From: Candidatus Kryptoniota bacterium
GTDB lineage: Bacteria; Bacteroidota; Ignavibacteria; Kryptoniales; JAKASW01
Length of the DNA: 64,000 nucleotides
NCBI GenBank assembly: GCA_046706365.1
Contig: JBJKPN010000083.1
Span: forward strand, 7,541-71,540
Direction: 5' to 3'
Of this stretch, positions 19,853-64,000 are shown in pieces. The position numbers and the translations under genes were made by a program. The stretch's first letter is position 1; each line of letters begins with the position of its first letter. Below the pieces are notes generated by a model. That model had not been told where the DNA came from. It did not search any database and worked only from the letters and a program-made list of their open reading frames with translations.

Positions 19853-20217
19853 ATTTCTCCTCCGTTGCGAGCTAGGTGGAATGCCGAATTGCCATTGCCT
19901 TATGATCGAGTCTTGTTCAACCTCGGTAAACAGAGTGTCAACAGATCGCGCATCGATGGCTGAAAATCGAAGCCAGATGTGACGATGCGTGTTCTATGGA
20001 CCGAGTTGTCGATTCATTCAAGGCGAAGAATATTTCCACGTAATCTAGAGAGCAGTTGTGGAAAATACAATCTTGACTTAGTTTGAGAGGAGCGACTTCA
20101 GCAGCTCACAAAGTAAACTCCCGGCAGTTTCATTCGTCTAATATCTCAGCGTTTACACTCATTCCCTCTATAGCGGGATGTAACGGAAATTCAAGCAATA
20201 ACCAACGAGGCAAGTCT

Positions 20218-46021: not shown

Positions 46022-47206
46022 CTACGAGGACGCCACGACGGAGCCCCGAACGACATTTTCCTGCTTTGCCCGTTCTGCCACCCTTGCCTTAACCGCGGCG
46101 ACGTAAATGGCAAGCGGCCTGTACAATAGGTGTCCCCATTTCCCGAACGGCACCTCCACCACGAGCATCGGGACGACGACCGCCATGTGTACGGTATAGA
46201 TAACATATGTAGCCATCGCCAGGTTATTGACGCGGAAAACATGAAGAAGAATGCCCGTGAGCGCCGCCAGGAACAGCAATATCGGAAAAAGCCAGTCGGA
46301 AAAATGGCTGAACCTGTGCATCCCGGTCCGTTTCTTCATTCTGTCGATGATCATCCATATTGTGGCTATCATCAGTACGCCCGTTGCGTAATACCCTAAG
46401 AAGCTCGTCCAGTGAATGCTGCTGTCGTCCACCTGGAACCAGGGCAGGAATACGACGACAAGCGTGAACATGATGCCGTAGCCGCTGACGAGGAAGAGAT
46501 GGCGCAGCCAGTTCTTCATTTCCGTGCCGCTGCCGCAGTCCTTCCATCGAACTTGTGTCACGCCCTGAACAATCATGTACGGAAGCTGAGTGATGTACAG
46601 CCCCAGGGGTATCCTGTCGCCGCGCGTCATAGCCGCGAACATTCTGGCCGCATTTATTAGCAGCAGGAGACCGAGAGTCGCCGCCATAATTCTGTCGCCC
46701 ACATCAACTATCCCCACCGGCGCAAACCGGTCGAGCATAACGGCAGACAACGGCGCAGGTCCGGAACGGCCGAGCAAACCGAAACCGAAATTCGACGGCA
46801 GGATGAACAGCAATACAATCGCGGCCGCCACCGAGGCGAGGATGCCGATCTCCCAATACACGGATCTGTACATGAGCCGGGATAAGCCTGTCCAGTCGTA
46901 CTTCGAAGTGGCGTATCTTCTCATCGCCATCATTGTTTCGCCCGGCTCCGCTTTGCGCGGGCATCTTTCCGAACAATCCCCGCAATAGAAGCATAGCCAT
47001 GGACCGGGGTCTTCAAGCAGCCGGTCTTTCAATCCCCATTGTGCGAGGAGCATGGGTCTCCGGGGAAACGGGTCTTCCTCGGTCGAGAGGGGGCAGACTG
47101 CCGAACATGTTGCACATTGATAACATTTCTTGAGGTCCCCCGCACCGTACTTCTGAAGCTCCCTTATAAATTCACTGTCGGGAGTGACCAGGCTTCTATC
47201 GTTCAT
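46022..47206 (-). CDS. qmoC: Quinone-interacting membrane-bound oxidoreductase subunit C (HdrC-like 2x[4Fe-4S] domain + heme-b membrane domain)
   Basis: 394 aa. CYQCATCSAVCP and CFYCGDCSERCP ferredoxin motifs, followed by about 6 TM helices with conserved His. Same strand as aprBA and qmoAB. Confidence 0.85.
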   Translation of the reverse strand: MNDRSLVTPDSEFIRELQKYGAGDLKKCYQCATCSAVCPLSTEEDPFPRRPMLLAQWGLKDRLLEDPGPWLCFYCGDCSERCPRKAEPGETMMAMRRYATSKYDWTGLSRLMYRSVYWEIGILASVAAAIVLLFILPSNFGFGLLGRSGPAPLSAVMLDRFAPVGIVDVGDRIMAATLGLLLLINAARMFAAMTRGDRIPLGLYITQLPYMIVQGVTQVRWKDCGSGTEMKNWLRHLFLVSGYGIMFTLVVVFLPWFQVDDSSIHWTSFLGYYATGVLMIATIWMIIDRMKKRTGMHRFSHFSDWLFPILLFLAALTGILLHVFRVNNLAMATYVIYTVHMAVVVPMLVVEVPFGKWGHLLYRPLAIYVAAVKARVAERAKQENVVRGSVVASS

Positions 47207-47219
47207 AGTGTTTGTGCGT

Positions 47220-48044
47220 TCAAGGTTTTACACTTTGCGATGTCAGACGGGTGCCTGTCGGCCTGCCGCCGGATTTCACCCGCATCGTCTTGTCACCGAA
47301 CAGGCAGTACTTGAGCCATGTGATGCCGAACTTGAGCAGCTCTTCGTCATCCGATTTGATTTCGTTCACCAATTCCTCGTCCACTTCGAATCTTTCCAGA
47401 AAGCTGCTCCCAAAGACGAATTCTCTGAACTTATCTATGTTATAGCAGACGGTGTAAAACATTTCGAGCTTTGCCGGAGTAAGCTGCTTCTTCTCCTTGA
47501 AGAAATCGTGCAGCGAAAGTTCTTTGAACAGCTCCCCCATTTCCGAATAATGCTCGACCCCCTGGTCTGCTATCCAATCGGCCACCGTCCAGTCCTTCTG
47601 CTGCAAATATCCCTGACAGACCGACTCCTCGATCATGAAATAAAAATCTCTTTCGCCGCCCTCCCCACTCTCCTTCGGAGAGGCCACACCGAGCGGAAAC
47701 ATCCTGCAGGACCACGGTCGATCCTCATAAATGGAGCAGCCCTCGGACCGGACGAACGGACAGGACTTCCTCTCGTCGTCGTTCATCTTCAGCATGACCA
47801 CGGGGTGGTTCTGGCTCTCGTCGATGGGAAGGAACGTGTATTTGTCGAGGAATTCCTGCGATGAGATCTTCAGTCTGTTCTTCATCCGGATGATGTCATA
47901 CGGGGTCAGGAAGATGTTGACGTCGGTGCAACACATGTTGAAGCAGCTGATCCCTTTGTGGCAGCTGAACTTGAACCCGCTTTCCTTTTTCATGTGCGGA
48001 TAATCTTTCAGCACGGCCTCTTTCAGATTCTCAAGCTCTTTCAT
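47220..48044 (-). CDS. YkgJ/UPF0153-family cysteine-cluster (putative Fe-S or Zn) protein
   Basis: 274 aa. FSCHKGISCFNMCC near the N-terminus and CPFVRSEGCSIYEDRPWSCRMFP, the family hallmark. Lies 13 nt upstream of qmoC. Confidence 0.7.
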   Translation of the reverse strand: MKELENLKEAVLKDYPHMKKESGFKFSCHKGISCFNMCCTDVNIFLTPYDIIRMKNRLKISSQEFLDKYTFLPIDESQNHPVVMLKMNDDERKSCPFVRSEGCSIYEDRPWSCRMFPLGVASPKESGEGGERDFYFMIEESVCQGYLQQKDWTVADWIADQGVEHYSEMGELFKELSLHDFFKEKKQLTPAKLEMFYTVCYNIDKFREFVFGSSFLERFEVDEELVNEIKSDDEELLKFGITWLKYCLFGDKTMRVKSGGRPTGTRLTSQSVKP

Positions 48045-48065: not shown

Positions 48066-48455
48066 TTATTCAATAATCGAATCCCTTAGCGCATCTTTGG
48101 ACCAGACCGGAAGCGGACTCGCGCTCCCGCTCACAGGGTCTTCACTGTACCTGTACGAGATGTTCTGGTTGAACTGCTTCTTCATCCAGTCCCATCCCCT
48201 TACGAAATAGGGGCATTCGTCGTTGAAGCATACGTTCAGGAAGTCGGCATCCCATGAAGACCCCTCCGGGCAGCGCCACATCTTCAGCGGCTGATGGCAG
48301 TGGGGACATTCCCCGATTTTCTCTTGTTTCATTTCGTTCGCAATGTCAGAAAGAAGTATTTGTGCCAGATTCGGGAGCGACTCCTGCCGCTCCCGAATCG
48401 GCGAACTTGTTGCTAGTTGACTATCTGATGGATTGGTCTGGAGAACACTTCCCAC
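48066..48455 (-). CDS. Small Cys-rich (zinc-ribbon-like) hypothetical protein downstream of aprA
   Basis: ECPHCHQPLKMWRCPEG ... CFNDECPYFVRGWDWM. The track ORF overlaps the aprA 3' end by 43 nt. The internal Met at 48332 is an alternative start. Confidence 0.55.
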   Translation of the reverse strand: MGSVLQTNPSDSQLATSSPIRERQESLPNLAQILLSDIANEMKQEKIGECPHCHQPLKMWRCPEGSSWDADFLNVCFNDECPYFVRGWDWMKKQFNQNISYRYSEDPVSGSASPLPVWSKDALRDSIIE

Positions 48456-50287
48456 TTGTTATCCTTCGGAATCCATTTCATGTTTACGAATACCTTCCAG
48501 TCCTTCTCGTCCATCGAAGGCTTGTCGGAACGGAAGTAGTATCCGGGCCAGCGGGTCTCTTCCCTGAAAAGAATGGCCCTGACGTGAGCTTCCGCCTGCC
48601 ACATTCTATGGACGTTTTCCCAGCATCTCATCAGTTCGTGAAGGTCCGATGCAGCGAGCTTCTCGGAATCGACCTTCAGATACTCGAGGAGTTCCAGGCC
48701 TTTTTCGAGGAGAGCCTTGCTCGTTTTGAATTGGGAGGAGACGCCGCCTGCGTACTCGTCCATGATCTTCTGCAACCTGAACATGAACATTTTCGGCTTG
48801 ATGTAGTTCGGGTTGATTTCCGGATCCGTCGACGACTTACTGAACTGGCCGTACGTGTCGAGAGGCTTCAGGATCTCAGTCTTCAACGCATCGATTTGTG
48901 CCTGATCGTACTTACGGGATTCGGGGTGATCGATGATATAGTCGATAGCAGCTTTTGCGGCTATCCTGCCTTCGGCATGCGAGCCCGAGGAGAACTTGTG
49001 GCTCGATGCTCCGGACGCGTCGCCGGCGCAGAAGATTCCGCTGATGGTGGACATATTGGCATATCCCCAGAAATAATCCGCAGGGGCAAGATCCTTCGGA
49101 CCGCTGACCCATGCACCGGAGGCGCCGGAATGTGATCCGATGAAGTACGGTTCTGCGGCCGCAATCTCGGAAGGCTTCTGCTCCGGAGCCGTATCTGTAC
49201 CGGCCCACAGGATCGCCTGCGAAATTGTCATGTCAAGGAAGTCTTCCCATGCTTCGGCCTCGAGTTCCTTCAGTTTCTTCTTGGCTGCTTTTTCGTCGCC
49301 GGATTCGGACGCGATCTTGTTGATGGCTTCTTCGGTCCTCATGTAAATCGGGCCTTTTCCGTCCATGACGTCGAGCATCATAAGCCAGTTGCGGAGGTTG
49401 GCGGGGACGGGTTTCACCTTCCCGTACGGTATCCATTTCTCGAGTTCGTCCTTCCGCTCTTCCATGTAGTTGCCGCCCATGCCGTTGGTAGCTCTCGACT
49501 TGAAGAGGAGGAACCAAGCTCCGACCGGGCCGTACGCATCCTTGAACCTTACGGGGATGAAGCGTACTTCCTGGCAGGTCATCTCTGCACCGGCTTTCAG
49601 CGTAAAGTAAGCACTCGACCCGGAATTCCACGGCGGATACCATGCGCGACCGAAGCCTTCTCCGGAAGAACGCGGTTTGAAGACGTGTACCGCTCCGCCC
49701 ATCGCCACCAGGACGGCCTTGGCCTTGAACACGTAGAATTTTTCTTCGCGAACGCTGAACCCGACCGCACCTACGCACACATCGCCGTCCATGAGCGGCC
49801 CGACGATGAATACTCTCTCGTAAATGTTTTCCGCGCCGAGCGCGTTCTTTGCTGCTTCAGCTACTACCACCTTGTATGACTCGCCGTTTATCATCAGCTG
49901 CCACCGGCCTTCATGCACGTAGTTGCCGTTTTCATCCTTCCAGATCGGCAGTCCCCATTTTTCAAATAGATGTACCGTCGAATCGACGTGGCGGGCGATG
50001 TTGTACACAAGGTCCTCGCGAGTAATTCCCATCAGGTCGCTCCGGACGTACTTGACATAATCCTCGGCCGTGTTTTTCCCGTCTTTGATGCCGACGTACT
50101 GGTTGATAGCCGAGAGTCCCATCGCAACCGCACCGCTCCGGTCCACCGCGGCCTTGTCGACAAGCGTGACCTTCAAGCCGTGCTGCTTCGCCCAGTGAGC
50201 GGCTTCGACAGCTGCGCCGCAGGCAGCCATGCCGCCGCCGACTATCAGCAGATCCGTCTCCACTACTTCTGTTTTCAAATTAGCCAT
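48413..50287 (-). CDS. aprA: Adenylylsulfate (APS) reductase alpha subunit
   Basis: 624 aa. TDLLIVGGGMAACGAAVEA FAD motif, fumarate-reductase/AprA-like body. Immediately follows aprB. Confidence 0.92.
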   Translation of the reverse strand: MANLKTEVVETDLLIVGGGMAACGAAVEAAHWAKQHGLKVTLVDKAAVDRSGAVAMGLSAINQYVGIKDGKNTAEDYVKYVRSDLMGITREDLVYNIARHVDSTVHLFEKWGLPIWKDENGNYVHEGRWQLMINGESYKVVVAEAAKNALGAENIYERVFIVGPLMDGDVCVGAVGFSVREEKFYVFKAKAVLVAMGGAVHVFKPRSSGEGFGRAWYPPWNSGSSAYFTLKAGAEMTCQEVRFIPVRFKDAYGPVGAWFLLFKSRATNGMGGNYMEERKDELEKWIPYGKVKPVPANLRNWLMMLDVMDGKGPIYMRTEEAINKIASESGDEKAAKKKLKELEAEAWEDFLDMTISQAILWAGTDTAPEQKPSEIAAAEPYFIGSHSGASGAWVSGPKDLAPADYFWGYANMSTISGIFCAGDASGASSHKFSSGSHAEGRIAAKAAIDYIIDHPESRKYDQAQIDALKTEILKPLDTYGQFSKSSTDPEINPNYIKPKMFMFRLQKIMDEYAGGVSSQFKTSKALLEKGLELLEYLKVDSEKLAASDLHELMRCWENVHRMWQAEAHVRAILFREETRWPGYYFRSDKPSMDEKDWKVFVNMKWIPKDNKWEVFSRPIHQIVN

Positions 50288-50303: not shown

Positions 50304-50747
50304 CTAATGCTTTATTGTGACTACTTCTGGAAGACCCAAAGACTCTGGCTCCGTGAAAAGCACAGGACTCTTGAGGTCGGTATTGCCGGTATGCCACCCG
50401 CCGTCGGGTGCAGCCTTGCCTTCGTCCGTGGTACGAATGGGGAATTTGAATCTTTTCAGTGTGCCGTTTCGGAATTTTATCGTCCACATGATCGAATCGG
50501 TACTTCTCATCGGCGTAACTGTGGCACCGAGTGGGACGAAATCCGCATACCCGCGTACTTCGATGGCCTGCGTCGGGCAGATCTTGACGCAGTTGTAGCA
50601 TTCCCAGCACATTTCAGGTTCGCGGTTGTATGCCTTCATTATGTCCTTGTTCAAGGCCATCAAGTCATTGGGACAGATATACTGACATGCCGTTTTGTCC
50701 AATGCCTTGCATCCGTCGCATTTATCAGGATTCACATAGCTCGGCAT
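50304..50747 (-). CDS. aprB: Adenylylsulfate (APS) reductase beta subunit
   Basis: 147 aa. MPSYVNPDKCDGCKALDKTACQYICPNDLM and CWECYNCVKICP [4Fe-4S] motifs with an AprB-type C-terminal tail. Confidence 0.92.
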   Translation of the reverse strand: MPSYVNPDKCDGCKALDKTACQYICPNDLMALNKDIMKAYNREPEMCWECYNCVKICPTQAIEVRGYADFVPLGATVTPMRSTDSIMWTIKFRNGTLKRFKFPIRTTDEGKAAPDGGWHTGNTDLKSPVLFTEPESLGLPEVVTIKH

Positions 50748-50902: not shown

Positions 50903-52144
50903 CTATTTCTTCAGTTTGTCTGAGCCCTCGCCCGTTGCAAACTGGTGCATCTTGATCTCGACCTTCTGATCCAGTTTGGAATAATAGTCGCGCAGAATCG
51001 CGAGGACTTCCGGGCGGCTGAACTCTGCGGGCACTTCGGAGCCCTCCGACAACGCCTTGCGAAGAGCCGTACCGCTCAGGAACAACCGGTCTTCCTTCTT
51101 GTGCGGGCACGTCTTCATGGATGCCATGCCGCCGCATTTGAAGCACCAGAAAGTCCAGTCGATTGGCAGCGGCTTAAGCAACAAGGCATCGGATGGGATT
51201 TCATAGAAAATTTTCTGCGCGTCGAACGGGCCGTAGTAGTTGCCGACTCCCGCGTGGTCCCTTCCGACGATGAGATGCGTGCAGCCGAAGTTCTGCCTGA
51301 ACACGCCGTGCAGAAGAGCTTCCCTCGGACCGGCATATCTCATGTCGAGCGGATAGCCGCCGCAAAGTACCGTGTCTTTGACGAAATAGTTTTCGACGAG
51401 TACGTCGATGCATTTCGCCCTGACTTCAGCTGGAATGTCTCCGGGTTTCAGTTTCCCGACAAGCTGGTGAATGTACAGCCCGTCGCTGACTTCAAGAGCG
51501 ATTTTCGCCAGGAACTCATGAGAGCGATGCATCGGATTTCGCAGCTGGAGCGCCGCAATCGTTCTCCATCCCTTCTCCGCAAAAATCTTCCTGCTCTCGG
51601 CCGGTCTCTGATAGAGTCCAGCAAACTCAGTCGGGAAATAGCTCTCGGACAGTACTTTTACCGGGCCGGCGACGTTCCATGGCTTCTGCTGCATTACCAT
51701 CTTCACTCCGGGATGCTCCGGGTCTTCCGTTGTGAATACCTGTTTGCATTCGAACCCCTTATCGATCTGGTACTTCTCAGACACCTTCATCGTACCCATG
51801 AGCTCGTCGGTCTCGTCGCTGTACAGTGCGACTTCCTGTCCGGTTTTCAGGGATTTGGCGTCTTCGTCCGTGACCGACATCGTGATGGGAATCGGCCAGA
51901 ACAGCCCGTTAGTCATTCTCATGTCCGAACAGACCCCCTGCCAGTCATCGTGCCCCATGAAGCCGTTAAGCGGGGTGAAGCCTCCGATCCCGAGCATTAT
52001 CATATCACCCGTCTCTCGACTGGTCATGCAAATCTTCTTTAGCCCCGCTGCCTTTCTGGTTTCTTCTTCCTTTTCTTTGCCGCTCAGGAGAAGGACATTC
52101 AGCTTGTCGCTTCCGTGCGGCCGTATTAAAGTAGATTCCGCCAT
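50903..52144 (-). CDS. sat: Dissimilatory-type ATP sulfurylase (sulfate adenylyltransferase, homo-oligomeric Sat)
   Basis: 413 aa. [11 protein letters not shown] (RNPxHxxH) and VGRDHAGVG motifs. No APS-kinase domain. Confidence 0.92.
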
Positions 52145-52434: not shown

Positions 52435-54675
52435 TTACATCCCCTTGTACGGGTTGGGGCCCAGTTCCCTGACCTGCTCGACGAAACTATCGAATATCCC
52501 GGGGAGCTTTGTGTATTCGTCGATGGAAAGTGTCAGAAGTTTCACTCTCTCAGGTTCCAGAACAAGTTGTTTCAATTTCTCCTGCACATTCTCCATTCGC
52601 TTGCTCGCAAGCTCGCTCCCCTTGATGAAATGGCACTGATAATCCACACCGAATTTACAACCGAGCATAAGCACGCCGTCAAACCCCTTGGAGAGCGCGT
52701 CGGCAATCCACACCACGTTCACCGATCCGAGGCACCTCACAGGTATAACTCGGATATTCGGATCGTAATGAAGCCTGTACTTTCCGACCGTGTCCAGCGC
52801 AGGGTAGGCGTCGTTTTCGCACATAAAGGCGAGGATCCTCGGCTTGTCCTCATCCTCGTCGGGTATTTCCACTGCCTTGATCATCGAAGAAATCATCGGC
52901 ACGGAATAGTCCTTGAAGGATATTATTCTCTCCGGGCATGCACCGAGACAGATCCCGCAGCGGCGGCATCTGTTGAGATTAGGCAGCGGAGTACCTTTTT
53001 CGTCCTCGTCAAGCGTCCCGAACGGACACTCCTCCGTACAGCGTTTGCACTGCGTACAGCGCTGCAAAAAGAATTCCGGGTAGGATTCGTCCCCCGATCT
53101 CGGATGGACTGCCTTCCCTACCCTGGCCGAATGTATGAGCTGGATCGCCTTAAGTGTAGCGCCGTAAGCATCATTTCTAGCTGTGGAAAAATCCATGGGC
53201 GCGCGAACACTTCCGGCAGCGTAAATTCCCGTCCGCCTGGTCTCATACGGGAAACAAATGTAATGCGAATCTGGAAAACCGTACCTCAGTGTCGGCAGAT
53301 CGGTTCCCTGTCTGTATGTGAGATTCAATATCTTCGCGCCGACTTCGGCCGATTCGGCAGCTTTCTTGCCGTCGAGGGTCTTCTCAGAAATTGTCGCCGC
53401 TGATCCATCCGATTCGATACTTCCCACCAGCGTGGAGGGGACCATGCCGGTTGCCAGTACGACGAGGTCCGATTGTATGCTGATCCTGTTGCCGAGAAGC
53501 GTGTCATCGATGTCGATTCGGACCGAGCCGTCGGTCGAGGCGGTCAAACCGGCGATTTCACCTTTGGTCAGAAAGACGTTCCTTTCATTTTGCACCCGCT
53601 TATAAAACAGTTCGTGTTCGGCCGGCGTGCGCATATCCCGATAAATTATGTAGACCAGGGCTTCCGGGTATTTCTCCCTTATGTAAAGAGCTTGTTTCAA
53701 AGACATTGAGCAGCAAATTGAAGAGCAATACGGCAGGTGTCTTTCGTCGCGCGAACCGGCGCATAGCACGAACGCGACACTCCTGACGGGTTTGCCGTTC
53801 ATCAAGTCACCGTTGATTCCGTTCTTGAAGCGCTCCTCCAGCTGGAATCCTGTAATCACATTCTCGAATTTTCCGTATCCCAACTCGCCCAGCTTGTTCG
53901 GGTCGTACGGCTTCCACCCGGTCGCCTGAACAATTGCGCCGACTGTCAGCAGTTCGGTTCGCGCTCCCCCGTTGATTCTCAACACGACATGAAAGTCGCC
54001 CGGCTGCCCCGATATTTTTTCAATCGTGCAGGATGTGACCGCGGTAATCCTATCGTTCGACTCCACCTCGGAAATCATTCGTTCTATGCCGGAGAATTGC
54101 GGTTCCAGGAAAGGAGGCTCAATGGGAGCGATGCGGTGAAATTTTGCCATCTGCCCGCCGAGATTCTTTTCCTTTTCCGTAAGTACAACCGTGAATCCGG
54201 CTTTTGCAGCGGCAAGGGCTGACGTCAGTCCCGTTGTCCCGCCTCCAACCACGAGAATAGTCTCGTTCACTTCACTCCGCAACGGCTCAGGGAGTTCACT
54301 GTTTCTTACCTTTGCAACTCCCATTCGGAGATAGTCTTCGGCAAGCATCTGCGTGTCGTCGTCATTCGGCTTGTGCGTCCATGCGACATTCTCGCGGAGA
54401 TTGACACGCTCCACCATGACGCCTGAATCAAAACGAAATACATCCGACAGGAATCTTTGCGAACAGGCACCTATGACGACGCGGTTCAGTTTTTCGCTCT
54501 TTATTTCCTCTCTGATAGTCGCGACGCTTTCATCGCTGCATAACCACCCGTCAACCTTACAGACGGGAACTTTACTCTCGCCGGTGGCGAGCTTCGCGAG
54601 CCCGTCGCAGTTCAGCGCCCCGCCGATTCCGCAGCCCGAACAGAGATAAACGCCTACTTTGGTATCTATAGCCAT
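52435..54675 (-). CDS. qmoB: Quinone-interacting membrane-bound oxidoreductase subunit B (HdrA-like flavoprotein with ferredoxin and MvhD-like domains)
   Basis: 746 aa. VVGGGTTGLTSALAAAKAG FAD motif, CTQCKRCTEECP and CRRCGICLGACP clusters, and a C-terminal ILAFMCENDAYPALD...VIPVRCLGSVN MvhD-like domain. Confidence 0.88.
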   Translation of the reverse strand: MAIDTKVGVYLCSGCGIGGALNCDGLAKLATGESKVPVCKVDGWLCSDESVATIREEIKSEKLNRVVIGACSQRFLSDVFRFDSGVMVERVNLRENVAWTHKPNDDDTQMLAEDYLRMGVAKVRNSELPEPLRSEVNETILVVGGGTTGLTSALAAAKAGFTVVLTEKEKNLGGQMAKFHRIAPIEPPFLEPQFSGIERMISEVESNDRITAVTSCTIEKISGQPGDFHVVLRINGGARTELLTVGAIVQATGWKPYDPNKLGELGYGKFENVITGFQLEERFKNGINGDLMNGKPVRSVAFVLCAGSRDERHLPYCSSICCSMSLKQALYIREKYPEALVYIIYRDMRTPAEHELFYKRVQNERNVFLTKGEIAGLTASTDGSVRIDIDDTLLGNRISIQSDLVVLATGMVPSTLVGSIESDGSAATISEKTLDGKKAAESAEVGAKILNLTYRQGTDLPTLRYGFPDSHYICFPYETRRTGIYAAGSVRAPMDFSTARNDAYGATLKAIQLIHSARVGKAVHPRSGDESYPEFFLQRCTQCKRCTEECPFGTLDEDEKGTPLPNLNRCRRCGICLGACPERIISFKDYSVPMISSMIKAVEIPDEDEDKPRILAFMCENDAYPALDTVGKYRLHYDPNIRVIPVRCLGSVNVVWIADALSKGFDGVLMLGCKFGVDYQCHFIKGSELASKRMENVQEKLKQLVLEPERVKLLTLSIDEYTKLPGIFDSFVEQVRELGPNPYKGM

Positions 54676-54679
54676 GATG

Positions 54680-55936
54680 CTAGTTCCCTTTTATGACCTG
54701 GATTGCTTTTAAAACCGAGCCGGTGGCTTCCTGCACAACCGCGGAAACATCTTTCGGCCCTTTGCTCACACCGCAGCCGATGATTTCCGCACTGTCGGAT
54801 ATCAAGAAGCCGTTACTATCTATCGATGAAGGAGGAACAGGCAAACCGTCGACCGCAGGTTTCATTCCCGTTGCAAGCACAACAAGATCGACAGATTCCT
54901 TCAACCGTACGCTTTTCATGGTGTCTTCGGCTTCCACAATGAGTTTGTCTGAAGAGGGGTCTGGCGACACTTTAGCCACTTTTCCCCTGTGAAAATGCAC
55001 TTTCTCGTCCTTCCGTACCTCTCCGTAGAAATCCTCGAAGAACCCGCTTGATCGAACGTCGATGTAATGGATATGGATTTCAGCGTCGGGGTATTGTTCT
55101 CTGATGTACCGCACATGCTTGAGAGACGCCATGCAGCAGACGGACGAGCAGTACTCCAAGTGATTTTCATCCCTTGATCCCGCACATTGAACGAACGCAA
55201 CTTCCCCAACTTCGCCCAGAGTTGACGGCCTGAGTATCCGCCCCTTCGTCGGGCCGTCGGGCGAAGCAAGCCTTTCCATCATCACGTTCGTGATGACATC
55301 CGGAAATTGTCCGAAGCCAAGGACATCAAGTTTATTGGGATCGTATGGTTCCCAGCCGGTCGCCCAAACAACGGCGCCTGCCTCGATCTCTACGACCTTT
55401 TCCTTTTCAGACAAATCTATCGCCCCGTACTTGCACGCGTCAACGCACTTACTGCAGCTGCTCCCCTCGCAGGTAGCCGGGTCTATTACATACCGCTCCG
55501 GGTATGCATTCTGGTATGGAAGGTAAATTGAAGCTGTTTCATCCATGCCGTAGTTGAACTCGTTCTTCCTCGTCTTGGGGCATACGCTCACGCACTCACC
55601 GCATGAGGTGCATTGACTGGTCACAAATCGCGGACTCAGTCTCACGTTTGCCCTGTACTTCCCCGGCTTGCCCGACACATCGATTACTGTTGCTAGGGTC
55701 AGGAGTCTGATCGCAGGGTTTGTCCGCAGGCGGCGGAGATTGATTTCCAGTCCGCAGCTTGGGGGGCAAAGTTTCGGAAAATACTTGTTGAATTGAGTTA
55801 CCTTTCCACCGACATAGGGCCTCTTTTCAAGGAGCGTTACACTCAATCCCGTTTCGGCGGCCTCCACTGCCGCTGTAAGGCCCGCAATTCCGGCGCCAAC
55901 GACAAGGAGGTCCGATTTAATCATGTTCTCATTCAT
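54680..55936 (-). CDS. qmoA: Quinone-interacting membrane-bound oxidoreductase subunit A (HdrA-like flavoprotein)
   Basis: The start is set at ATG 55936 (MNENMIKSDLLVVGAGIAGLTAAVEAAETG), giving 418 aa. The track ORF start (56071) would overlap the upstream gene by 115 nt. CTSCGECVSVCP cluster. Lies 4 nt before qmoB. Confidence 0.88.
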   Translation of the reverse strand: MNENMIKSDLLVVGAGIAGLTAAVEAAETGLSVTLLEKRPYVGGKVTQFNKYFPKLCPPSCGLEINLRRLRTNPAIRLLTLATVIDVSGKPGKYRANVRLSPRFVTSQCTSCGECVSVCPKTRKNEFNYGMDETASIYLPYQNAYPERYVIDPATCEGSSCSKCVDACKYGAIDLSEKEKVVEIEAGAVVWATGWEPYDPNKLDVLGFGQFPDVITNVMMERLASPDGPTKGRILRPSTLGEVGEVAFVQCAGSRDENHLEYCSSVCCMASLKHVRYIREQYPDAEIHIHYIDVRSSGFFEDFYGEVRKDEKVHFHRGKVAKVSPDPSSDKLIVEAEDTMKSVRLKESVDLVVLATGMKPAVDGLPVPPSSIDSNGFLISDSAEIIGCGVSKGPKDVSAVVQEATGSVLKAIQVIKGN

Positions 55937-56839: not shown

Positions 56840-58537
56840 TCACAATCGCGTCTCCGTGCACTCCAACGATTTTTTTACTTTCGAGTACATTAGGTTTCCA
56901 CCTCCGAGGTAGGAGACGTTAGTGTGTCCGGAATTTGAAAAAATCCGCGCTGCTTCATACGCTCTCGGGCCCTTCTCGCAGACAAAGAGGACAGGCTCGT
57001 CTGCCGCGTAATCATCGGCCCTCGAGCGAAGCTCGGACAACGGTATGCGGACCGAGTTCTCGGCAAATGGAAACGCCGCCGTTTCAGCCGATTCCCTCAC
57101 GTCTATCATTGTTCCCCTGAACGAGGCTGCGTCGAGCGGGCTGACGCTGCGAATGCCGTCGATTTCCTGATCAATTGCCATGAATCCCAGATAATTCAGC
57201 GGCGAGACAGGCGATGAATGCGCGGGTGTGTAACAGTGCTCAATGTCGCGCAGGTCCGCTATCGTTCCACCGTGCGAAAGCAGCACGGCAAAAACATCTG
57301 CATATCGCGTTACCTCTCCATCGCCGATTAACTGGAGACCGAGCAACCTGAACCCGGGTTTTTGATAGACGAGCTTCCCGACAAGCAGCTTCTTCTCCGG
57401 GTGGTAATCCGGCCTGTCCGACCAGCAACCGACAATGCTTCCGGTTTCATAGCCAAGCCTGATCGCTTTCTTCTCAGTAAGGCCGACGGCACAGACAATG
57501 TTGTCGAACAATTTCAGCGAAACCGCCCCCGCCGCACCCTCGAAAGACGCATGCTTCCCGGCAATTGAATCGGCGGCAACTCTGCCCATTCTGTTGGAAA
57601 GAGAACCTAATGAGAAAAAGTCGGGAATGCCGGTAACCAGGTTTTCTATTTCCACGCAGTCGCCGGCCGCCCAGATGTTGCTGACGCTGGTCCTCATCTG
57701 CTCGTCAACCAGGATGCCGCCGTGCTTCCCCGTCTCTATGTTCGATTTCCGGGCCAGCTCCGAATTCGGCTTTACTCCGAGACAGTAGAATACATAGTCA
57801 CTCACCAGCCGCTCGCCGCTGTCGAGAGAGATGACCGGGGCTCCTTTTTCGTCCGTGTCGATCCTTTCAACGGACGTCGAAAGCAGGATCCGGACTTTTT
57901 GCGATTCAATAGAACTCTCGCAATAGTTTGAAATTTCCGGATCGAGGAAACCCGGGAGGATCGAACTCTCCTTCTCGACCAGGACGGTTTCAATCCCCCA
58001 TAGCGACGACAGTGCCTCGACCATCTCGCATCCCACGAACCCGCCTCCAATTATGACGGCTTTTCGGATCGCGCCTTTCTCCGCCAGCTTGCGGAACTTC
58101 TGGGCGTCTCTCGGGGTGTGAAAGGGCGAGACAGGTGCAGAAGCCGGGTAAGGAAATTGCGGCAATACCGTTTCCGCACCTGTCGCGATAATCAAAATAT
58201 CATAGGGCACGAAGATAGATTCGCTGCCGTCAAGATCCCTGCACCTTACCTGATTGCTTTGCGCAAGAATTTCTTCGACCACGGTTTTGGTAAGAACTTT
58301 GACACCTTTGACCTGACGGAAGTACTCTTCATCTCTTGGTACGCCGTACGAGGTCGCCGCTAGATCCGAGATCGTATCGATTTCTCCCGCCGCGTACTGT
58401 GGAAGGCCGCAGCTGCTGAACGATATAAACGGGCCCCTCTCGATGATTGTCACGCGGAAATCGAGAGAGAGCCTGCAGAGTCTTGCTGCTGCCCTGCATC
58501 CTGCGGCCATGCCCCCGATAATTACCACGTTAGGCAC
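56840..58537 (-). CDS. CoA-disulfide-reductase-type FAD/NAD(P)H disulfide oxidoreductase fused to a C-terminal rhodanese domain (persulfide/polysulfide reductase-like)
   Basis: 565 aa. VVIIGGMAAGCRAA, the redox Cys in SFSSCGLPQY, a second Rossmann motif VIIGGGFVGCE, and the C-terminal rhodanese active-site loop FVCEKGPRA (CxxGxR). Confidence 0.8.
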   Translation of the reverse strand: MPNVVIIGGMAAGCRAAARLCRLSLDFRVTIIERGPFISFSSCGLPQYAAGEIDTISDLAATSYGVPRDEEYFRQVKGVKVLTKTVVEEILAQSNQVRCRDLDGSESIFVPYDILIIATGAETVLPQFPYPASAPVSPFHTPRDAQKFRKLAEKGAIRKAVIIGGGFVGCEMVEALSSLWGIETVLVEKESSILPGFLDPEISNYCESSIESQKVRILLSTSVERIDTDEKGAPVISLDSGERLVSDYVFYCLGVKPNSELARKSNIETGKHGGILVDEQMRTSVSNIWAAGDCVEIENLVTGIPDFFSLGSLSNRMGRVAADSIAGKHASFEGAAGAVSLKLFDNIVCAVGLTEKKAIRLGYETGSIVGCWSDRPDYHPEKKLLVGKLVYQKPGFRLLGLQLIGDGEVTRYADVFAVLLSHGGTIADLRDIEHCYTPAHSSPVSPLNYLGFMAIDQEIDGIRSVSPLDAASFRGTMIDVRESAETAAFPFAENSVRIPLSELRSRADDYAADEPVLFVCEKGPRAYEAARIFSNSGHTNVSYLGGGNLMYSKVKKSLECTETRL

Positions 58538-58589
58538 TTCAAGCTCCTCGGTCCGGAATCTCTCGATCCCGATGGCGCATATACGACAT

Positions 58590-59747
58590 CTATGCTTCGG
58601 CTCCCTTCCTGATCGACAATACCATCTTGTAGAAAAGCGTGATGAACATGAACCCGATGGCCCAAACGCCGAGTGCTATCAGCGACTCGGGGACTGTCGG
58701 CCAGTACTGAATCACTTTACCGAAGGGGGAAGGTATAAAACCCGTAATTATCAATCCGAGACCCTTGTCAATCCAGATCGATATGAAGACGGTAGCACAG
58801 GCTATGAAGAATGTTCTGTTGTTATTCCGTGTGCGGGGAACGATAAGGAGAGCCAGCGACAAGAGGGCCAGAACAGCCGACGTCCACATCCAGGGTGCCA
58901 GCCGTGCAGATCCGTCGAAACCGAAATACAAGTACTGCAGGTGTGAAACGTCGTCCGGGATACCGCTGTAGAAGGTCGTAAAAAATTCCATGAGGATGAA
59001 AAACACATTCACGCACATCGCATAAGTGATAATCACGCCGAGTTTCCTGAACGCTGCGTCGCCCGCGTCAAAACCGGTCAGCCTCTTCATCACGACGCAA
59101 AGGATCACGAGAAGTGCGGGCCCGGCCGCAAAGGCGGATGCGAGGAACCTCGGGGCCATGATGGCGGTCAACCAGAACGGCCGTCCGGCCAATCCCGCGA
59201 GCAGGAACGCCGTCACGGTGTGGATGCTGACAGCCCAAGGAATTGACAGGATGATTATTGGCCGGATCCATTTGGGCGGGCGGATCGATTTACGTTCCGC
59301 GTCCAGCGTCACGCGTGTTATGATTACATTGAGGATCAGGTAACCGCTGAGCGCAATTACGTCCCAGAACAACAACGAATGGGGCGTAGGATAGATGAGG
59401 ATATTCAGAATTCTAAACGGCTGCCCGAGGTCGATAAACACGAAAAGCATACACATAATCACGGAAGAGATGGCGAGAAATTCACCGAGTATCGTGACCT
59501 TCGCGAAAGCCTTGTAATCGTGCAGGTAATACGGCAAAACAACCATGACGGCCGATGCCGCCACCCCAACCATGAAGGTAAACTGGGCAATATACAATCC
59601 CCAGCTGACATTCCTGCTCATGCCGGTCAGCCCCAGTCCGTAGTCCAATTGTCTGAGATAAAAATAAAAGCCAACCGCTATTACGAGGGCCAGAAAAAGG
59701 AGCCAGCTCCAGTAATTCCTGCTTCCTCTGAATGCATGTTCTATCAT
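58590..59747 (-). CDS. dsrP: DsrP, NrfD/PsrC-type integral membrane quinone-interacting subunit
   Basis: 385 aa and about 10 TM. GLGLTGMSRNVSWGLYIAQFTF is NrfD-like. Follows dsrO. Confidence 0.88.
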   Translation of the reverse strand: MIEHAFRGSRNYWSWLLFLALVIAVGFYFYLRQLDYGLGLTGMSRNVSWGLYIAQFTFMVGVAASAVMVVLPYYLHDYKAFAKVTILGEFLAISSVIMCMLFVFIDLGQPFRILNILIYPTPHSLLFWDVIALSGYLILNVIITRVTLDAERKSIRPPKWIRPIIILSIPWAVSIHTVTAFLLAGLAGRPFWLTAIMAPRFLASAFAAGPALLVILCVVMKRLTGFDAGDAAFRKLGVIITYAMCVNVFFILMEFFTTFYSGIPDDVSHLQYLYFGFDGSARLAPWMWTSAVLALLSLALLIVPRTRNNNRTFFIACATVFISIWIDKGLGLIITGFIPSPFGKVIQYWPTVPESLIALGVWAIGFMFITLFYKMVLSIRKGAEA

Positions 59748-59756
59748 TTTCGCGCC

Positions 59757-60560
59757 TTAAACGAGATAATAAATTTCCGGATTCGTGCCCAGCTCCGGCT
59801 TTCGCCTGATCGAGAAATTGTCTTTCAGAAGCTGCCTCACTTCCGAAGACGGATCGTTGAGATTGCCAAACACCATCGCTTTCTCAGGGCACACGTCGAC
59901 GCATATCGGGAGGAGTCCCTGGGCTATTCTTTCATCGCACCAGGTGCATTTCTCTACGACTCCCTTCATCCGCGTCGGGTAATCCGGGTTGATGTCTTTG
60001 ATGAACGGACGAGGGTCCCTCCAGTTGAAGCTTCTCGATCCGAACGGACAGGCGGCCATACAGTACCTGCAGCCGATGCAGCGGTGCCAGTCGATCATCA
60101 CTATGCCGTCGTCGCGCTTGAAAGTCGCCTGTGTTGGGCAGACCTCGACGCACGGCGGGTTGTCGCAGTTGTTGCAGAAAACCGGCACCTTCTTGTTCCT
60201 GAACTCGTCCTTCATGTAGTAGTTTTCCTGTTCGAGGAACGCATTCTCGTAAGGCTCTTTCCATATCCACTTTATCGCGTCTTTTGATTCTCCGAAGTCC
60301 GGTATGTTATGCGCCTTGTTGCAGGCATCGATACATTTCGTGCAGCCCTGATCCGAGACACACTTGCGCAAATCCACGACCATTGCCAGGCGCACCTTCT
60401 GTACGCTCTTCGCCCCGGCCAATCGCTTGCCTGCCCCAACGGCCTTCGACAGGATCTTCGCAGATGTGCTTCCGGCGTGAACGCTCGCGTATCTTTCCGC
60501 CGTTACACCCAGCGCGGTCAGGCCGGCCAGCTTCAGGAGCTTTCTTCGACTTATATCCAT
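59757..60560 (-). CDS. dsrO: DsrO, periplasmic Tat-exported 4x[4Fe-4S] ferredoxin subunit
   Basis: 267 aa. Twin-arginine signal MDISRRKLLKLAG. CIGCRYCMAACP and related clusters. Confidence 0.88.
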   Translation of the reverse strand: MDISRRKLLKLAGLTALGVTAERYASVHAGSTSAKILSKAVGAGKRLAGAKSVQKVRLAMVVDLRKCVSDQGCTKCIDACNKAHNIPDFGESKDAIKWIWKEPYENAFLEQENYYMKDEFRNKKVPVFCNNCDNPPCVEVCPTQATFKRDDGIVMIDWHRCIGCRYCMAACPFGSRSFNWRDPRPFIKDINPDYPTRMKGVVEKCTWCDERIAQGLLPICVDVCPEKAMVFGNLNDPSSEVRQLLKDNFSIRRKPELGTNPEIYYLV

Positions 60561-60955
60561 CAGTTACTCTTCACGTTTGGAGGTTTGTTATGACAATCCC
60601 AGCAATAAGGGTTTACGCCGACATAATTGTGACACTGATCGCAAAACTGAGACGTGTTCGGATGACAGCCCAGACATGTCTTTGTGAACCTCATCTCAAA
60701 CTCTTTTCCGTTGCTCGAAGTATAGTATGTGTCACCGTCCCTGACGACCTCCGTTCTCCACTCGTTCAGCAAAGCCATGTGATCGCGTCTCATGAACTCC
60801 AGACCGGCCACGCACTCCTTCTGGCCTTCCTTTGTCGGGAGAACGAGATCAGGTCTTTCGAGCGCTTTCCCGTTCGACATGTCATACCAGAACGGGGACG
60901 TGAACAGTCCGGCAAAGATTATCAGTCCGACAATTATTTTCCCGCTATCGTACAT
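60560..60955 (-). CDS. dsrJ: DsrJ, membrane-anchored periplasmic triheme cytochrome c
   Basis: 131 aa. N-terminal anchor and three heme motifs CLGCH, CDQCH and CWDCH. Confidence 0.9.
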   Translation of the reverse strand: MYDSGKIIVGLIIFAGLFTSPFWYDMSNGKALERPDLVLPTKEGQKECVAGLEFMRRDHMALLNEWRTEVVRDGDTYYTSSNGKEFEMRFTKTCLGCHPNTSQFCDQCHNYVGVNPYCWDCHNKPPNVKSN

Positions 60956-61464: not shown

Positions 61465-63111
61465 TCAACGATTCTGATTCTGCGCGACCTCTTGATCCGC
61501 CTTTTCGTCATTCGCAGCGAGCGGCTCACCACGAAGGTCGGTATCTCTTTGTTTTTCGCCCTTCATGATCAGCGCATTTCCGACAAGCTCGTGGATTCCG
61601 CCGACATCGACTCCCCCGACCCAGTATTCCATCAGCGGCGGGAGCGTCGCCTTGTCGATTGCGCAAATACAACCGAGGAAGTTGACGCCGTGTTTTTCCT
61701 TCACGAACTTCACCGCATTCGCTCTCGGCAGGCCGCCTCTCATCCTCATCTCCAGGTTTTCATCGGTGCCGAGCCCGGCGCCACTTCCGCAACAGAAGGT
61801 CTGTTCCTTGATCGTATTCTCAGGCATCTCGTAAAAATGGTTGCAGGCATTTCGGATTATAAATCTCGGCTCTTCAATGAGGCCGAGAGCGCGCGCAGGG
61901 TTGCATGAGTCGTGGAAAGTGATTTTCCGGTGATCGTTGCGACTCTTATCCAGCTTAATCTTGTCGTTCTTTATGAGGTCGGCTGTAAACTCGCATATAT
62001 GGACCATTCTCGTGGCTCTTGCGTTCTCGAATTTCGTGCCTGTGACGGGAGAAACGGGTTCATCGAGAAAATCGGCTGGCCCGTTTAGCGTGTCCATGTA
62101 CTGGTGCACGACTCTCCACATATGACCGCACTCTCCGCCCAGGATCCATTTGACCCCGAGCCGCTTGGCTTCAGCGTACATCTTCGCGTTCAGGCTTTTC
62201 ATGAGGTCATGCGAGATGAACGAGCCAAAGTTGCCGCCCTCAGACGCGTAAGTGCTCCAGGTGTAGTCGAGACCGATCTCGTGAAAGAGCGCAAGGTAGC
62301 CGAGTAGCGTGTAGTAATGGGGAGTTCCGAAATAGTCGGCAGACGGCGTAATGAAAAGGATCTCCGCACCTTTCCTGTTGATCGGGGCTTCCACTTTTAC
62401 GCCTGTGATGGACTCGAGCTCATCCACCGCGAAGTCGATGCTGTCCTTGAATCCGTGGGGCTGGATGCCGAGGTGATTACCCGTCCTGAAACTGTTGGCA
62501 ACAGGCGTTACGATCCAGTCGATATTCACGCCGACAAGACTGAGCAGCTCTCTGACCAGTATCGTAATTTCTGCGGTGTCGATTCCGTATGGACAAAACA
62601 CTGAACAGCGCCTGCATTGCGTGCACTGGTAGAAGTAATAGAACCACTCCTTCAGCACGTCGAATGTCAGCTCGCGCGCTCCGGCAAACTTTCCGAGTAT
62701 CTTTCCCGCGACGGTGAAATCGTTTCTGTAGACCGATCTCAACAATTCGGCACGCATTACCGGCATGTTTTTAGGATCCCCGGAGCCTATGAAGAAATGA
62801 CACTTATCCGCGCAAGCACCGCACCTGACGCAAATATCCATGTATATCTGCAGCGACCGGAAGCGATGTAATCGATCCCGGAGCCCTTCCAGGATTATCT
62901 CCTTCCAGTTTTCCGGCAGCTTCCAGTCGGGATCCGTCGGTTGCCATTTCCGCGGGTTCGGCAGTCCAAGGTACTCGATGTTTTTCGGGTTACCGCTGTA
63001 GTTGAAGGTCCCCTCTTTGAAATCCACCGGCTGTTCCATCCAGCCGTTCGGAGGAAGGTTGTACTTGATTTTACCGGCTAATTCTTCCGGTTTTAATTTC
63101 GATCCGGACAT
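61465..63111 (-). CDS. dsrK: DsrK, cytoplasmic HdrD-like Fe-S subunit with CCG domains
   Basis: 548 aa. CVRCGACADKCH, CTQCRRCSVFCP, and CCG-type motifs FHDSCNPAR and QTFCCGSGAG. Confidence 0.9.
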   Translation of the reverse strand: MSGSKLKPEELAGKIKYNLPPNGWMEQPVDFKEGTFNYSGNPKNIEYLGLPNPRKWQPTDPDWKLPENWKEIILEGLRDRLHRFRSLQIYMDICVRCGACADKCHFFIGSGDPKNMPVMRAELLRSVYRNDFTVAGKILGKFAGARELTFDVLKEWFYYFYQCTQCRRCSVFCPYGIDTAEITILVRELLSLVGVNIDWIVTPVANSFRTGNHLGIQPHGFKDSIDFAVDELESITGVKVEAPINRKGAEILFITPSADYFGTPHYYTLLGYLALFHEIGLDYTWSTYASEGGNFGSFISHDLMKSLNAKMYAEAKRLGVKWILGGECGHMWRVVHQYMDTLNGPADFLDEPVSPVTGTKFENARATRMVHICEFTADLIKNDKIKLDKSRNDHRKITFHDSCNPARALGLIEEPRFIIRNACNHFYEMPENTIKEQTFCCGSGAGLGTDENLEMRMRGGLPRANAVKFVKEKHGVNFLGCICAIDKATLPPLMEYWVGGVDVGGIHELVGNALIMKGEKQRDTDLRGEPLAANDEKADQEVAQNQNR

Positions 63112-63113
63112 TT

Positions 63114-64000
63114 CTATTCCTTATCCAAAGGTAATCCTGCTTCTTTCATCTTCTCCCGGAATTCGTCCTCATACTCCGGATAGGTGTGAACCCGGACCGG
63201 ACGATTCCACGGGTTAACGTGTCTCTTCATGCGACTGTTGTTCGCCAGGTTCCTCGTCGGCGACAGGAATATCCCGGGCATGTGCAGCAGCTTGCTGAAC
63301 GGGAAATACGCGAGAAGCGCACACACGAGGAATAGGTGCGTGTAGAAAATTACCCCGATGCCCTGTGGGACCGCGGGATGAAAGGTGAACAGGCCGATGA
63401 TGAGCTCCTTTACGTTGACGAGGTCCACCCTGATGAAATAACGCATCAGGATTCCGGTTATCGCGATGCTGATTATGAGAAACAACGGGAAATAATCTGA
63501 CGCGAGCGAGATGTACCTGAGCTTGGGCACGACAATTCGACGGAGGATCAGGTATGTCAGGGCGGCCACTATAAGTACATCCGTGATATAAACTCCCGGG
63601 AGCCCCACCTGGAAGAACCCGTCGATGCTTTCGATCGCCGGCACAAAAGAGGGCACGGGCTGCATGAAAAGCCTGAAATGCCGCAGCACGATGATGAGCA
63701 TGGACCAGTGGAAAACTATCGCTCCGAGCCAAAGGTACTTGCTGCTTCCGTAAACAAGCCTGGGCCCGTCCTTCATTTCCATCTTCGTGTTGCGGAACAG
63801 CGAACGGAAAAACAACACCTCGAGGGCCATCCTCCCGATAACACCCCACGTTCCGCTTGGACTCTCCAGCTTGCTGCTCTTTATCCAGGAAAGAGATTTT
63901 TGCTGTCCCGCTACCGTCGGGATGTGAAACGGCACAGGCGACTTTGACCATTTAACGACGCGGTAAATGATACCGACAAGGAAGATTGTCATTGCCGAGT
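63114..64000 (-). CDS. dsrM: DsrM, NarI-like diheme-b membrane subunit; 5' end probably beyond the window
   Basis: 292 aa counted from the Met at 63992, but the frame stays open to base 64000 and the first TM helix looks truncated. It has multi-TM NarI-like topology with conserved His and ends ...YPEYEDEFREKMKEAGLP. Lies 2 nt before dsrK. Confidence 0.82.
   Translation of the reverse strand, partial: SAMTIFLVGIIYRVVKWSKSPVPFHIPTVAGQQKSLSWIKSSKLESPSGTWGVIGRMALEVLFFRSLFRNTKMEMKDGPRLVYGSSKYLWLGAIVFHWSMLIIVLRHFRLFMQPVPSFVPAIESIDGFFQVGLPGVYITDVLIVAALTYLILRRIVVPKLRYISLASDYFPLFLIISIAITGILMRYFIRVDLVNVKELIIGLFTFHPAVPQGIGVIFYTHLFLVCALLAYFPFSKLLHMPGIFLSPTRNLANNSRMKRHVNPWNRPVRVHTYPEYEDEFREKMKEAGLPLDKE

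Follow-up and report, generated by a model that had tools for sequence, protein, structure and literature searches.

The dsrMKJOP genes of a Candidatus Kryptoniota bacterium are followed, on the same strand, by a gene for a flavoprotein with a C-terminal rhodanese domain (the fusion). The gene lies in a 64,000-nucleotide (nt) stretch of contig JBJKPN010000083.1 (assembly GCA_046706365.1, positions 7,541 to 71,540 of the forward strand), which is the whole piece of DNA analyzed and is called the window here; positions are counted from its first nucleotide. By sequence and predicted fold, the fusion is a member of the Npsr / CoADR-RHD / coenzyme A (CoA)-persulfide-reductase family, and its linkage to dsrP is real, recurrent and found across phyla, but optional. 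This placement suggests a supporting role in sulfate respiration, without being proof of one. The reading favored here, with a probability of about 55%, is that the fusion acts as an accessory sulfane-sulfur reductase dependent on reduced nicotinamide adenine dinucleotide (NADH), which would be co-expressed with the sulfate-reduction genes and would clear persulfide and polysulfide sulfur.

The enzyme family is already known, and it is the systematic placement after dsrMKJOP that was not found described. In full-text searches and in papers on Kapabacteria, expanded Dsr diversity, Dsr synteny, DsrL, Ignavibacteria and Kapabacteria genomes, and Npsr, no mention of the fusion beside dsrMKJOP was found, which does not prove the arrangement to be undescribed. 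Uncultured sulfate-reducer lineages (Kryptoniota, Ignavibacteria, Zixibacteria) keep an Npsr-type gene at this site, in the middle of a single-strand supercluster, and the synteny offers a testable lead on the purpose of Npsr in sulfate reducers, namely sulfane-sulfur handling during sulfite reduction. If the favored reading is true, models of the Dsr pathway gain an accessory step, either reactive-sulfur clearing or an NADH-linked outlet, and the fusion becomes a useful annotation marker for such clusters. If the placement merely reflects inherited gene order, the fusion is just one more member of its family, found in surroundings that happen to be interesting.

Identity of the Fusion Protein

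The fusion is encoded on the minus strand by a single open reading frame (ORF) of 565 codons plus stop, beginning with GTG. Translation and Pfam confirm the 565-residue flavoprotein with two cysteine motifs that had been described by a sequence-only reading of this DNA, in which the minus strand was left unstated. The redox motif SFSSCGLPQY spans residues 39-48 (Cys43 codon at 58409-58411), and the rhodanese loop FVCEKGPRA spans residues 518-526 (Cys520 codon at 56978-56980). The sole public copy (P0001, 556 residues, 100% identical) is annotated from Met10, a choice that affects nine codons (58511-58537, minus strand) and drops the first Rossmann β-strand of the flavin adenine dinucleotide (FAD) fold. 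Since the homologues of the fusion all align from residue 2-3 and a start at Met10 cuts this strand, the GTG start is the better one. The closest relative of the fusion comes from a Ca. Kryptoniota metagenome-assembled genome (MAG) and is 69% identical, compared with 70-93% for the neighboring genes.

Pfam assigns Pyr_redox_2 (8e-55), Pyr_redox and Pyr_redox_dim to the protein, along with a C-terminal Rhodanese domain at residues 477-547. Full-length matches in a sequence search of the PDB are led by the Archaeoglobus fulgidus Npsr (AfNpsr; 6PFZ, 1.4e-96, 35% identity over 551 residues), followed by 3IWA from D. vulgaris (8.6e-86), the B. anthracis CoADR-RHD (3ICR, 1.2e-77), the CoA persulfide reductase of E. 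faecalis (EfCoAPR; 8A56, 3.6e-73) and the Shewanella loihica Npsr (SlNpsr; 3NTA, 1.9e-67). With 31 relatives as input, AlphaFold2 gave a model with a mean predicted local distance difference test (pLDDT) value of 88.8 and a predicted template modeling (TM) score (pTM) of 0.86. When this model is searched with Foldseek, the 14 best PDB matches are chains of exactly 6pfz, 3icr, 8a56 and 3nta, which cover both domains over about 550 columns with TM scores of 0.89-0.91. Nox, Npx and plain CoADR structures match the N-terminal part only, with TMq values of 0.74-0.76 for Nox and Npx. The CoADR-rhodanese identity put forward from the sequence is therefore borne out, in that the protein is a full-length relative of four structurally and kinetically characterized fusions (E values 1e-96 to 1e-67, TM 0.89-0.91). 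It is best named an Npsr-type persulfide reductase homologue rather than a CoADR.

The catalytic residues of the family are in place. Cys43 falls on the active Cys in alignments with each of the four solved enzymes and is invariant in sets of 31 and 76 relatives. Cys520 aligns with Cys519 of AfNpsr, Cys508 of EfCoAPR, Cys531 of SlNpsr and the catalytic Cys of 3icr, and the rhodanese Cys is kept in all full-length relatives. The NADH site consists of the GxGxxG motif G164-G-G-F-V-G169 and Glu188, which is kept in most relatives and aligns with Glu183, the NADH-specificity residue of AfNpsr (A. fulgidus Npsr paper). Furthermore, the loop ATSYGVPRD (residues 60-69), with the pattern T62-x-Y-G-x-x-R68-D, matches the AfNpsr lid TTYGAVRD. 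The lid of AfNpsr closes the CoA pocket of an enzyme that reduces persulfides and polysulfides and has no disulfide activity (A. fulgidus Npsr paper).

Two further cysteines, Cys14 (58496-58498) and Cys170 (58028-58030), directly follow the FAD and NADH glycine motifs (MAAGC and GFVGCE). Both are conserved in the clade from the Fibrobacterota-Chlorobiota-Bacteroidota (FCB) group, except that Cys14 is replaced by Pro in Zixibacteria, and no solved homologue has either of them; they may be mere clade markers. A dsrP-linked subclade (L034, L038, L039 and L040, and less clearly L024, L030 and L031) has an altered dinucleotide site at aligned residues 162-192. There, GGGF[IV]GCE is changed to GGGEYAW or similar, so that GxGxxG becomes GxGxxA, and Thr, Ser or Ala stands in place of Glu188; both catalytic Cys are kept. 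From these substitutions, the subclade may have switched to NADPH or lost pyridine-nucleotide use.

Conserved Placement After dsrP

The survey of other genomes that the sequence-only reading had called for was carried out from two directions, and it covers the relatives reached by one fusion-based and one DsrP-based scan, all of them in the FCB group. In the fusion-based survey, a search with the 31-relative alignment, made over a single representative genome for each GTDB species, gave 80 loci; neighbors were called by tblastn with the window's own proteins, and a locus was testable when it had enough upstream sequence. Of the 76 testable loci from these species-representative genomes, 61 have the fusion as the next gene behind dsrP on the same strand, and the linked genomes include Kryptoniota, Ignavibacteria, Zixibacteria and GN15. 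An independent DsrP-based search of metagenome contigs gave 68 testable loci, with the fusion right after dsrP in 35. Conserved linkage to dsr genes is thus found in both searches, and the idea that the enzyme is wired into the Dsr/Qmo locus is supported, as far as computation goes, by this recurrent placement after dsrP, with the provision that the linkage is optional.

The linked loci form two clades whose mutual identity is only about 40%. The first comprises Kryptoniota, Ignavibacteria and MAGs labelled 'Bacteroidetes', with junctions between dsrP and the fusion of mostly 12-40 nt, and the second comprises Zixibacteria, GN15 and FCB MAGs, with junctions of about 130-365 nt. In the neighbor-joining tree, a grade that does not adjoin dsr lies between both clades and is made up of Kapabacteria, some mislabelled MAGs and three Ignavibacteriae. 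A member of this grade, Ca. Kapaibacterium Ch6, in which the fusion lies away from dsr, is a predicted sulfate reducer. Among the DsrP-based loci that lack the fusion, about 14 of the 68 have the order dsrP-hemA-(kinase-like)-qmoA, and the others have siroheme genes, dsrN, dsrAB, an H+-pyrophosphatase or unrelated genes.

The second conserved neighbor of the fusion is hemA, which encodes glutamyl-tRNA reductase (TIGR01035). It is the next gene in 53 of 73 loci, 10 of which have no dsr nearby. The Kapabacteria-type clade has kept only the fusion-hemA pair, away from dsr, and the Zixibacteria have siroheme genes of the cysG-like and cobA/hemD kinds behind hemA. No hemA comes after the fusion in the window or at 13 further loci, yet the fusion stays between dsrP and the kinase-like gene; hemA and a second copy of the fusion were both sought in the window, and neither was found. 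Since loci with either adjacency alone exist, each of the two (dsrP-fusion and fusion-hemA) outlives the loss of the other. In part, the pattern may arise because genes for siroheme synthesis generally cluster behind dsrMKJOP in the lineages concerned.

Taken further, these data could mean that the HemA/siroheme pathway is the primary partner of the fusion, which might keep the catalytic Cys of HemA free of persulfide, and that dsrMKJOP lies beside it through siroheme clustering. The frequent hemA adjacency, also far from dsr, and the siroheme genes that follow in Zixibacteria speak for such a tetrapyrrole link, as do the fusion-less loci, where the genes next to dsrP are often hemA or those for siroheme. 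Set against this are the window and the 13 other loci, which keep the fusion after dsrP though hemA is gone, and no biochemical link between Npsr-type enzymes and HemA is known. This is considered the least probable of the alternatives weighed here.

Proposed Role and Alternatives

In the favored reading, the fusion would be a homodimeric FAD protein of the Npsr type with a mechanism carried over from its solved relatives (PMC9405070 for EfCoAPR). The exposed rhodanese Cys520 would take up sulfane sulfur from a persulfide or polysulfide, and a tightly bound CoA, which is predicted, would swing over to collect the sulfur and deliver it to Cys43 beside the flavin. Attack by Cys43 would release H2S and leave a Cys43-S-S-CoA disulfide, which NADH would re-reduce via FAD; NADH is the predicted preferred donor because of Glu188. 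In the cell, zero-valent sulfur that leaks onto CoA, small thiols and the cysteines of proteins while sulfite is being reduced and sulfide accumulates would in this way be returned to H2S. Persulfides would thereby be kept off the thiol pool and off enzymes that depend on thiols, such as the HemA that adjoins in relatives.

The gene is tightly packed, with 52 nt between dsrP and the fusion, 13 nt between the fusion and the kinase-like gene, and about 20 nt from the latter to qmoA. Because it sits in the one-strand array dsr(N-L-C-T)MKJOP-fusion-kinase-qmoAB-sat-aprBA-qmoC, the fusion is most probably produced along with the machinery of sulfate respiration, and co-transcription with dsrMKJOP and qmoAB would be expected. 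No terminator-like hairpin or sigma-70-like site was found in the relevant gaps; the counts of such sites do not exceed those of shuffled sequence, and the promoter model is likely unsuited to Bacteroidota.

Several points weigh against this reading. The fusion is absent at about half of the related dsrP loci, about 14 of which have hemA directly after dsrP, which means that the pathway can do without it; an accessory role does fit a gene that is optional. Because the fusion-hemA pair also occurs away from dsr, as in Ca. Kapaibacterium Ch6, part of the synteny could be inherited order or the transfer of whole islands and not a sign of functional coupling. NADH dependence is not universal among the relatives, since the L034/L038-L040 subclade has a changed NADH motif. 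Evidence for the predicted binding of CoA is indirect, namely the conserved AfNpsr-type lid loop over the CoA pocket. Finally, the best NCBIfam matches of the fusion are CoA-disulfide reductase models, all below their cut-offs (TIGR03385, 299.7 vs. 578.8; NF007123, 283.2 vs. 458; NF010037, 165.6 vs. 394).

The last point leads to general redox housekeeping, in which a CoA-disulfide reductase or NADH oxidase would shield an anaerobe living where oxic and anoxic zones meet, and the location of its gene among the dsr and qmo genes would be incidental. Beyond the NCBIfam matches, the NADH oxidase activity of AfNpsr and the optional linkage to dsrP are in its favor. However, the scores fall far short of the cut-offs, both for CoADR and for the NADH oxidase model NF046103 (170 vs. 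600), and AfNpsr does not reduce CoA disulfide (A. fulgidus paper). The rhodanese Cys, which is required for persulfide turnover in EfCoAPR (PMC9405070), is strictly kept, and the same slot after dsrP is occupied in two clades as distant as those described above. Housekeeping of this kind is considered quite unlikely. A strict identity as CoADR or NADH oxidase is rejected, given the scores below curated cut-offs and the presence of a rhodanese domain with its conserved Cys.

A catabolic role, as first proposed for the Shewanella Npsr, would have sulfur or polysulfide serve as an extra electron sink or in disproportionation. It draws on the likeness of family and residues to SlNpsr and AfNpsr, which both reduce polysulfide, and on the location of the gene within a sulfur-energy cluster. 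Cytoplasmic NADH consumption by itself conserves no energy, however, no polysulfide import or Psr-type genes were seen beside the fusion in the window or in relatives, and Archaeoglobus has Npsr yet cannot respire sulfur (A. fulgidus paper). A sulfur- or polysulfide-respiring function is thus judged unlikely.

It is about as unlikely that DsrC is the partner, with the rhodanese Cys taking sulfane sulfur from a DsrC trisulfide or persulfide that NADH then reduces, as a soluble branch beside the membrane-bound DsrK step. Rhodanese domains accept sulfur from protein persulfides in sulfur relay systems, and the fusion lies directly behind dsrMKJOP, in an array that in relatives also includes dsrC, with a placement that spans phyla. 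On the other hand, it is dispensable in about half of the closely related dsrMKJOP loci, DsrK is always present, and relatives already have a DsrL-like NAD(P)H oxidoreductase beside dsrC. The AfNpsr-type lid suggests small substrates, and a bypass of the membrane complex would presumably waste conserved energy. The processing of DsrC trisulfide raised in the sequence-only reading thus has some evidence against it and none directly in its favor, and DsrC as a direct target, though possible, is less probable than accessory clearing of reactive sulfur. More doubtful again is the bolder form of this idea, in which the fusion would be a purpose-built, operon-encoded NADH:DsrC-trisulfide/persulfide reductase, the soluble branch of the last step of sulfite reduction in FCB sulfate reducers; the same role would then explain the Archaeoglobus Npsr, which is highly expressed and whose role is unexplained.

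The Surrounding dsr-qmo-sat-apr Cluster

On the minus strand, the genes run in the order dsrM, dsrK, a four-helix-bundle ORF, dsrJ, dsrO, dsrP, the fusion, a cytidylate-kinase-like gene, qmoA, qmoB, sat, aprB, aprA, a CxxCxxCC gene, qmoC and a porin gene (Table 1). The gap of 52 nt after dsrP on the same strand, reported earlier from the sequence, is exact, and the label "Dsr/Qmo locus" is correct, with the qmo, sat and apr genes and that for the CxxCxxCC protein all downstream. The label dsrMKJOP holds in that all five dsr genes score above their cut-offs, but the operon here is strictly dsrMK-x-JOP, with an ORF between dsrK and dsrJ. The start of qmoA was taken from its translation, and the assignment of qmoC leans also on the gene order of a related 120-kb contig (L161) because its NF038018 score is below the cut-off.

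Table 1. Features of the cluster and of the fusion (window positions; -, minus strand; L numbers denote loci of relatives).
Feature	Position	Strand	Evidence
dsrM, close to window end	63114..63992	-	NF038037, 509.6 bits (cut-off 300)
dsrK	61465..63111	-	NF045796, 736.9 bits (cut-off 400)
Four-helix-bundle / '23S rRNA intervening sequence protein' ORF, 137 residues	61051..61464	-	PF05635, TIGR02436
dsrJ	60560..60955	-	NF038038, 165.5 bits (cut-off 100)
dsrO	59757..60560	-	NF045797, 290 bits (cut-off 200)
dsrP	58590..59747	-	NCBIfam NF045798, 465 bits (cut-off 350); Pfam NrfD
dsrP-fusion spacer, 52 nt, GAGGAG 8 nt before GTG	58538..58589	-	Sequence, site scan
Npsr/CoADR-RHD-type flavoprotein gene (fusion)	56840..58537	-	ORF translation, Pfam, PDB sequence matches, AlphaFold2/Foldseek
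Pyridine-nucleotide-disulfide-oxidoreductase part, residues 3-455 (FAD fold, NADH fold, dimerization domain)	57173..58531	-	Pfam, motif table
C-terminal rhodanese domain, about residues 463-560, loop C520-E-K-G-P-R	56858..57151	-	Pfam, alignment
Cytidylate-kinase-like P-loop protein, 289 residues	55957..56826	-	PF13189, 4.1e-31
qmoA (HdrA-like flavoprotein), likely start MNENMIKSDLLVVGAG at 55936	54680..55936	-	NCBIfam HdrA-type matches; position agrees with L161 qmoA
qmoB (HdrA-like + FlpD/MvhD domain)	52435..54675	-	Pfam FlpD 3.2e-42, Pyr_redox_2
sat (sulfate adenylyltransferase)	50903..52144	-	NF003166, 513 bits (cut-off 387)
aprB	50304-50747	-	78-95% identity to relatives' aprB slot; APS-reductase_C call in L161
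aprA	48413-50287	-	TIGR02061, 906.8 bits
CxxCxxCC-domain protein	47220-48044	-	PF03692
qmoC	46022-47206	-	NF038018 top match, 238.9 bits, below cut-off 300; gene order in L161
hemA after fusion, in relatives	L005:11709-12923, L049:11708-12922, and 51 other loci		

In L161, for which genes were called independently, the same one-strand array extends upstream by dsrN, a DsrL-like flavoprotein, dsrC and dsrT, which places the fusion midway in a sulfate-reduction supercluster of about 20 kb. GC content is flat (0.52-0.55) across the cluster in the window. A recent insertion of the fusion is rejected on the basis of this flat GC content and of the same slot being filled in relatives.

The DsrL-like protein is an NAD(P)-binding iron-sulfur flavoprotein of 561 residues (PRK12771, Fer4_20), encoded between dsrN and dsrC (L161:1706-3391, L001:1432-3117), and the clusters of relatives thus have two different pyridine-nucleotide-linked flavoproteins flanking dsrMKJOP. 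Since this separate gene lies upstream of dsrC and dsrM, the fusion is no substitute for DsrL. An identity of the fusion as DsrL itself is rejected as well, as it has no iron-sulfur domain and another architecture, besides the separate DsrL-like gene in relatives.

The four-helix-bundle ORF is found at the same spot between dsrK and dsrJ in L001, L002 and L004. L041 instead has a diverged copy in the interval from dsrP to the fusion (L041:4576-4893), and this suggests a small gene that is mobile or has been inserted repeatedly. At Kryptoniota and Ignavibacteria loci, the kinase-like gene keeps its place immediately ahead of qmoA, whether or not the fusion or hemA precedes it. Its product has a C-terminal extension and could possibly be a nucleotide (AMP?) kinase tied to adenosine 5′-phosphosulfate (APS) reduction. 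The qmo genes are split, with qmoAB ahead of sat-aprBA and qmoC behind aprA and the gene for the CxxCxxCC protein; an aprA-hypothetical-qmoC arrangement has been described for Kapabacteria, and the window matches it (Thiel et al., 2019). After qmoC lies a gene of the phosphate-selective porin O/P family (44844-45983, minus strand) that weakly resembles ExtI, a porin encoded in an operon for selenite/tellurite reduction; its product might form an outer-membrane anion (sulfate?) channel of the cluster.

Elsewhere in the window are a gene with a 3′-phosphoadenosine 5′-phosphosulfate (PAPS)-reductase domain (1288-2184, minus strand), an arylsulfotransferase gene with a type IX secretion system (T9SS) sorting tail (20083-22416, plus strand) and a gene for a BNR/Sortilin/LamG surface protein of 2127 residues, also with a T9SS tail (22719-29102, minus strand). 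Together with the closest relatives, the T9SS tails indicate a bacterium of the FCB group, close to Kryptoniota and Ignavibacteria.

Comparison With Known Systems

DsrL is likewise encoded in dsr clusters, and it too is an NAD(P)H-dependent flavoprotein and a proposed pyridine-nucleotide link to sulfite reductase chemistry. It is, however, GltD/NfnB-like and carries iron-sulfur clusters, an architecture unrelated to that of the fusion. The FAD-dependent pyridine nucleotide-disulphide oxidoreductase of D. vulgaris (3IWA) is the second-best sequence match, comes from a sulfate-reducing host and has the lid loop TPYNVVRD, and it shares with the Zixibacteria clade a G-P-K variant after the FAD motif. 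With 472 residues it is shorter, lacks the rhodanese domain and is uncharacterized.

Reduction of persulfides and polysulfides with NAD(P)H is known for AfNpsr, SlNpsr and EfCoAPR. EfCoAPR and the B. anthracis CoADR-RHD have the same architecture and cysteines as the fusion (TM 0.89-0.90), but they are Firmicutes proteins of about 30% identity in which the loop at 60-68 is shorter. For EfCoAPR, the swinging-pantetheine mechanism and the in-cell persulfidation of the rhodanese Cys have been shown, and its gene belongs to a CstR-controlled sulfide-stress operon rather than a respiratory cluster (PMC9405070). SlNpsr, the founding Npsr, likewise has the same domains and cysteines (TM 0.90), and differs in its lower identity (28%), a more open CoA pocket and the lack of dsr context.

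The nearest known system is AfNpsr, which is the best match in both sequence and fold (TM 0.90) and has the same two domains, both Cys, the NADH-specificity Glu and the long lid loop. Unlike the fusion, it is archaeal and hyperthermophilic and is without Cys14 and Cys170, and the A. fulgidus paper gives no dsr context for it. That paper calls the presence of an Npsr in a sulfate reducer anomalous and its purpose a puzzle; its host, A. fulgidus, is a sulfate reducer like the lineages that keep the fusion behind dsrP.

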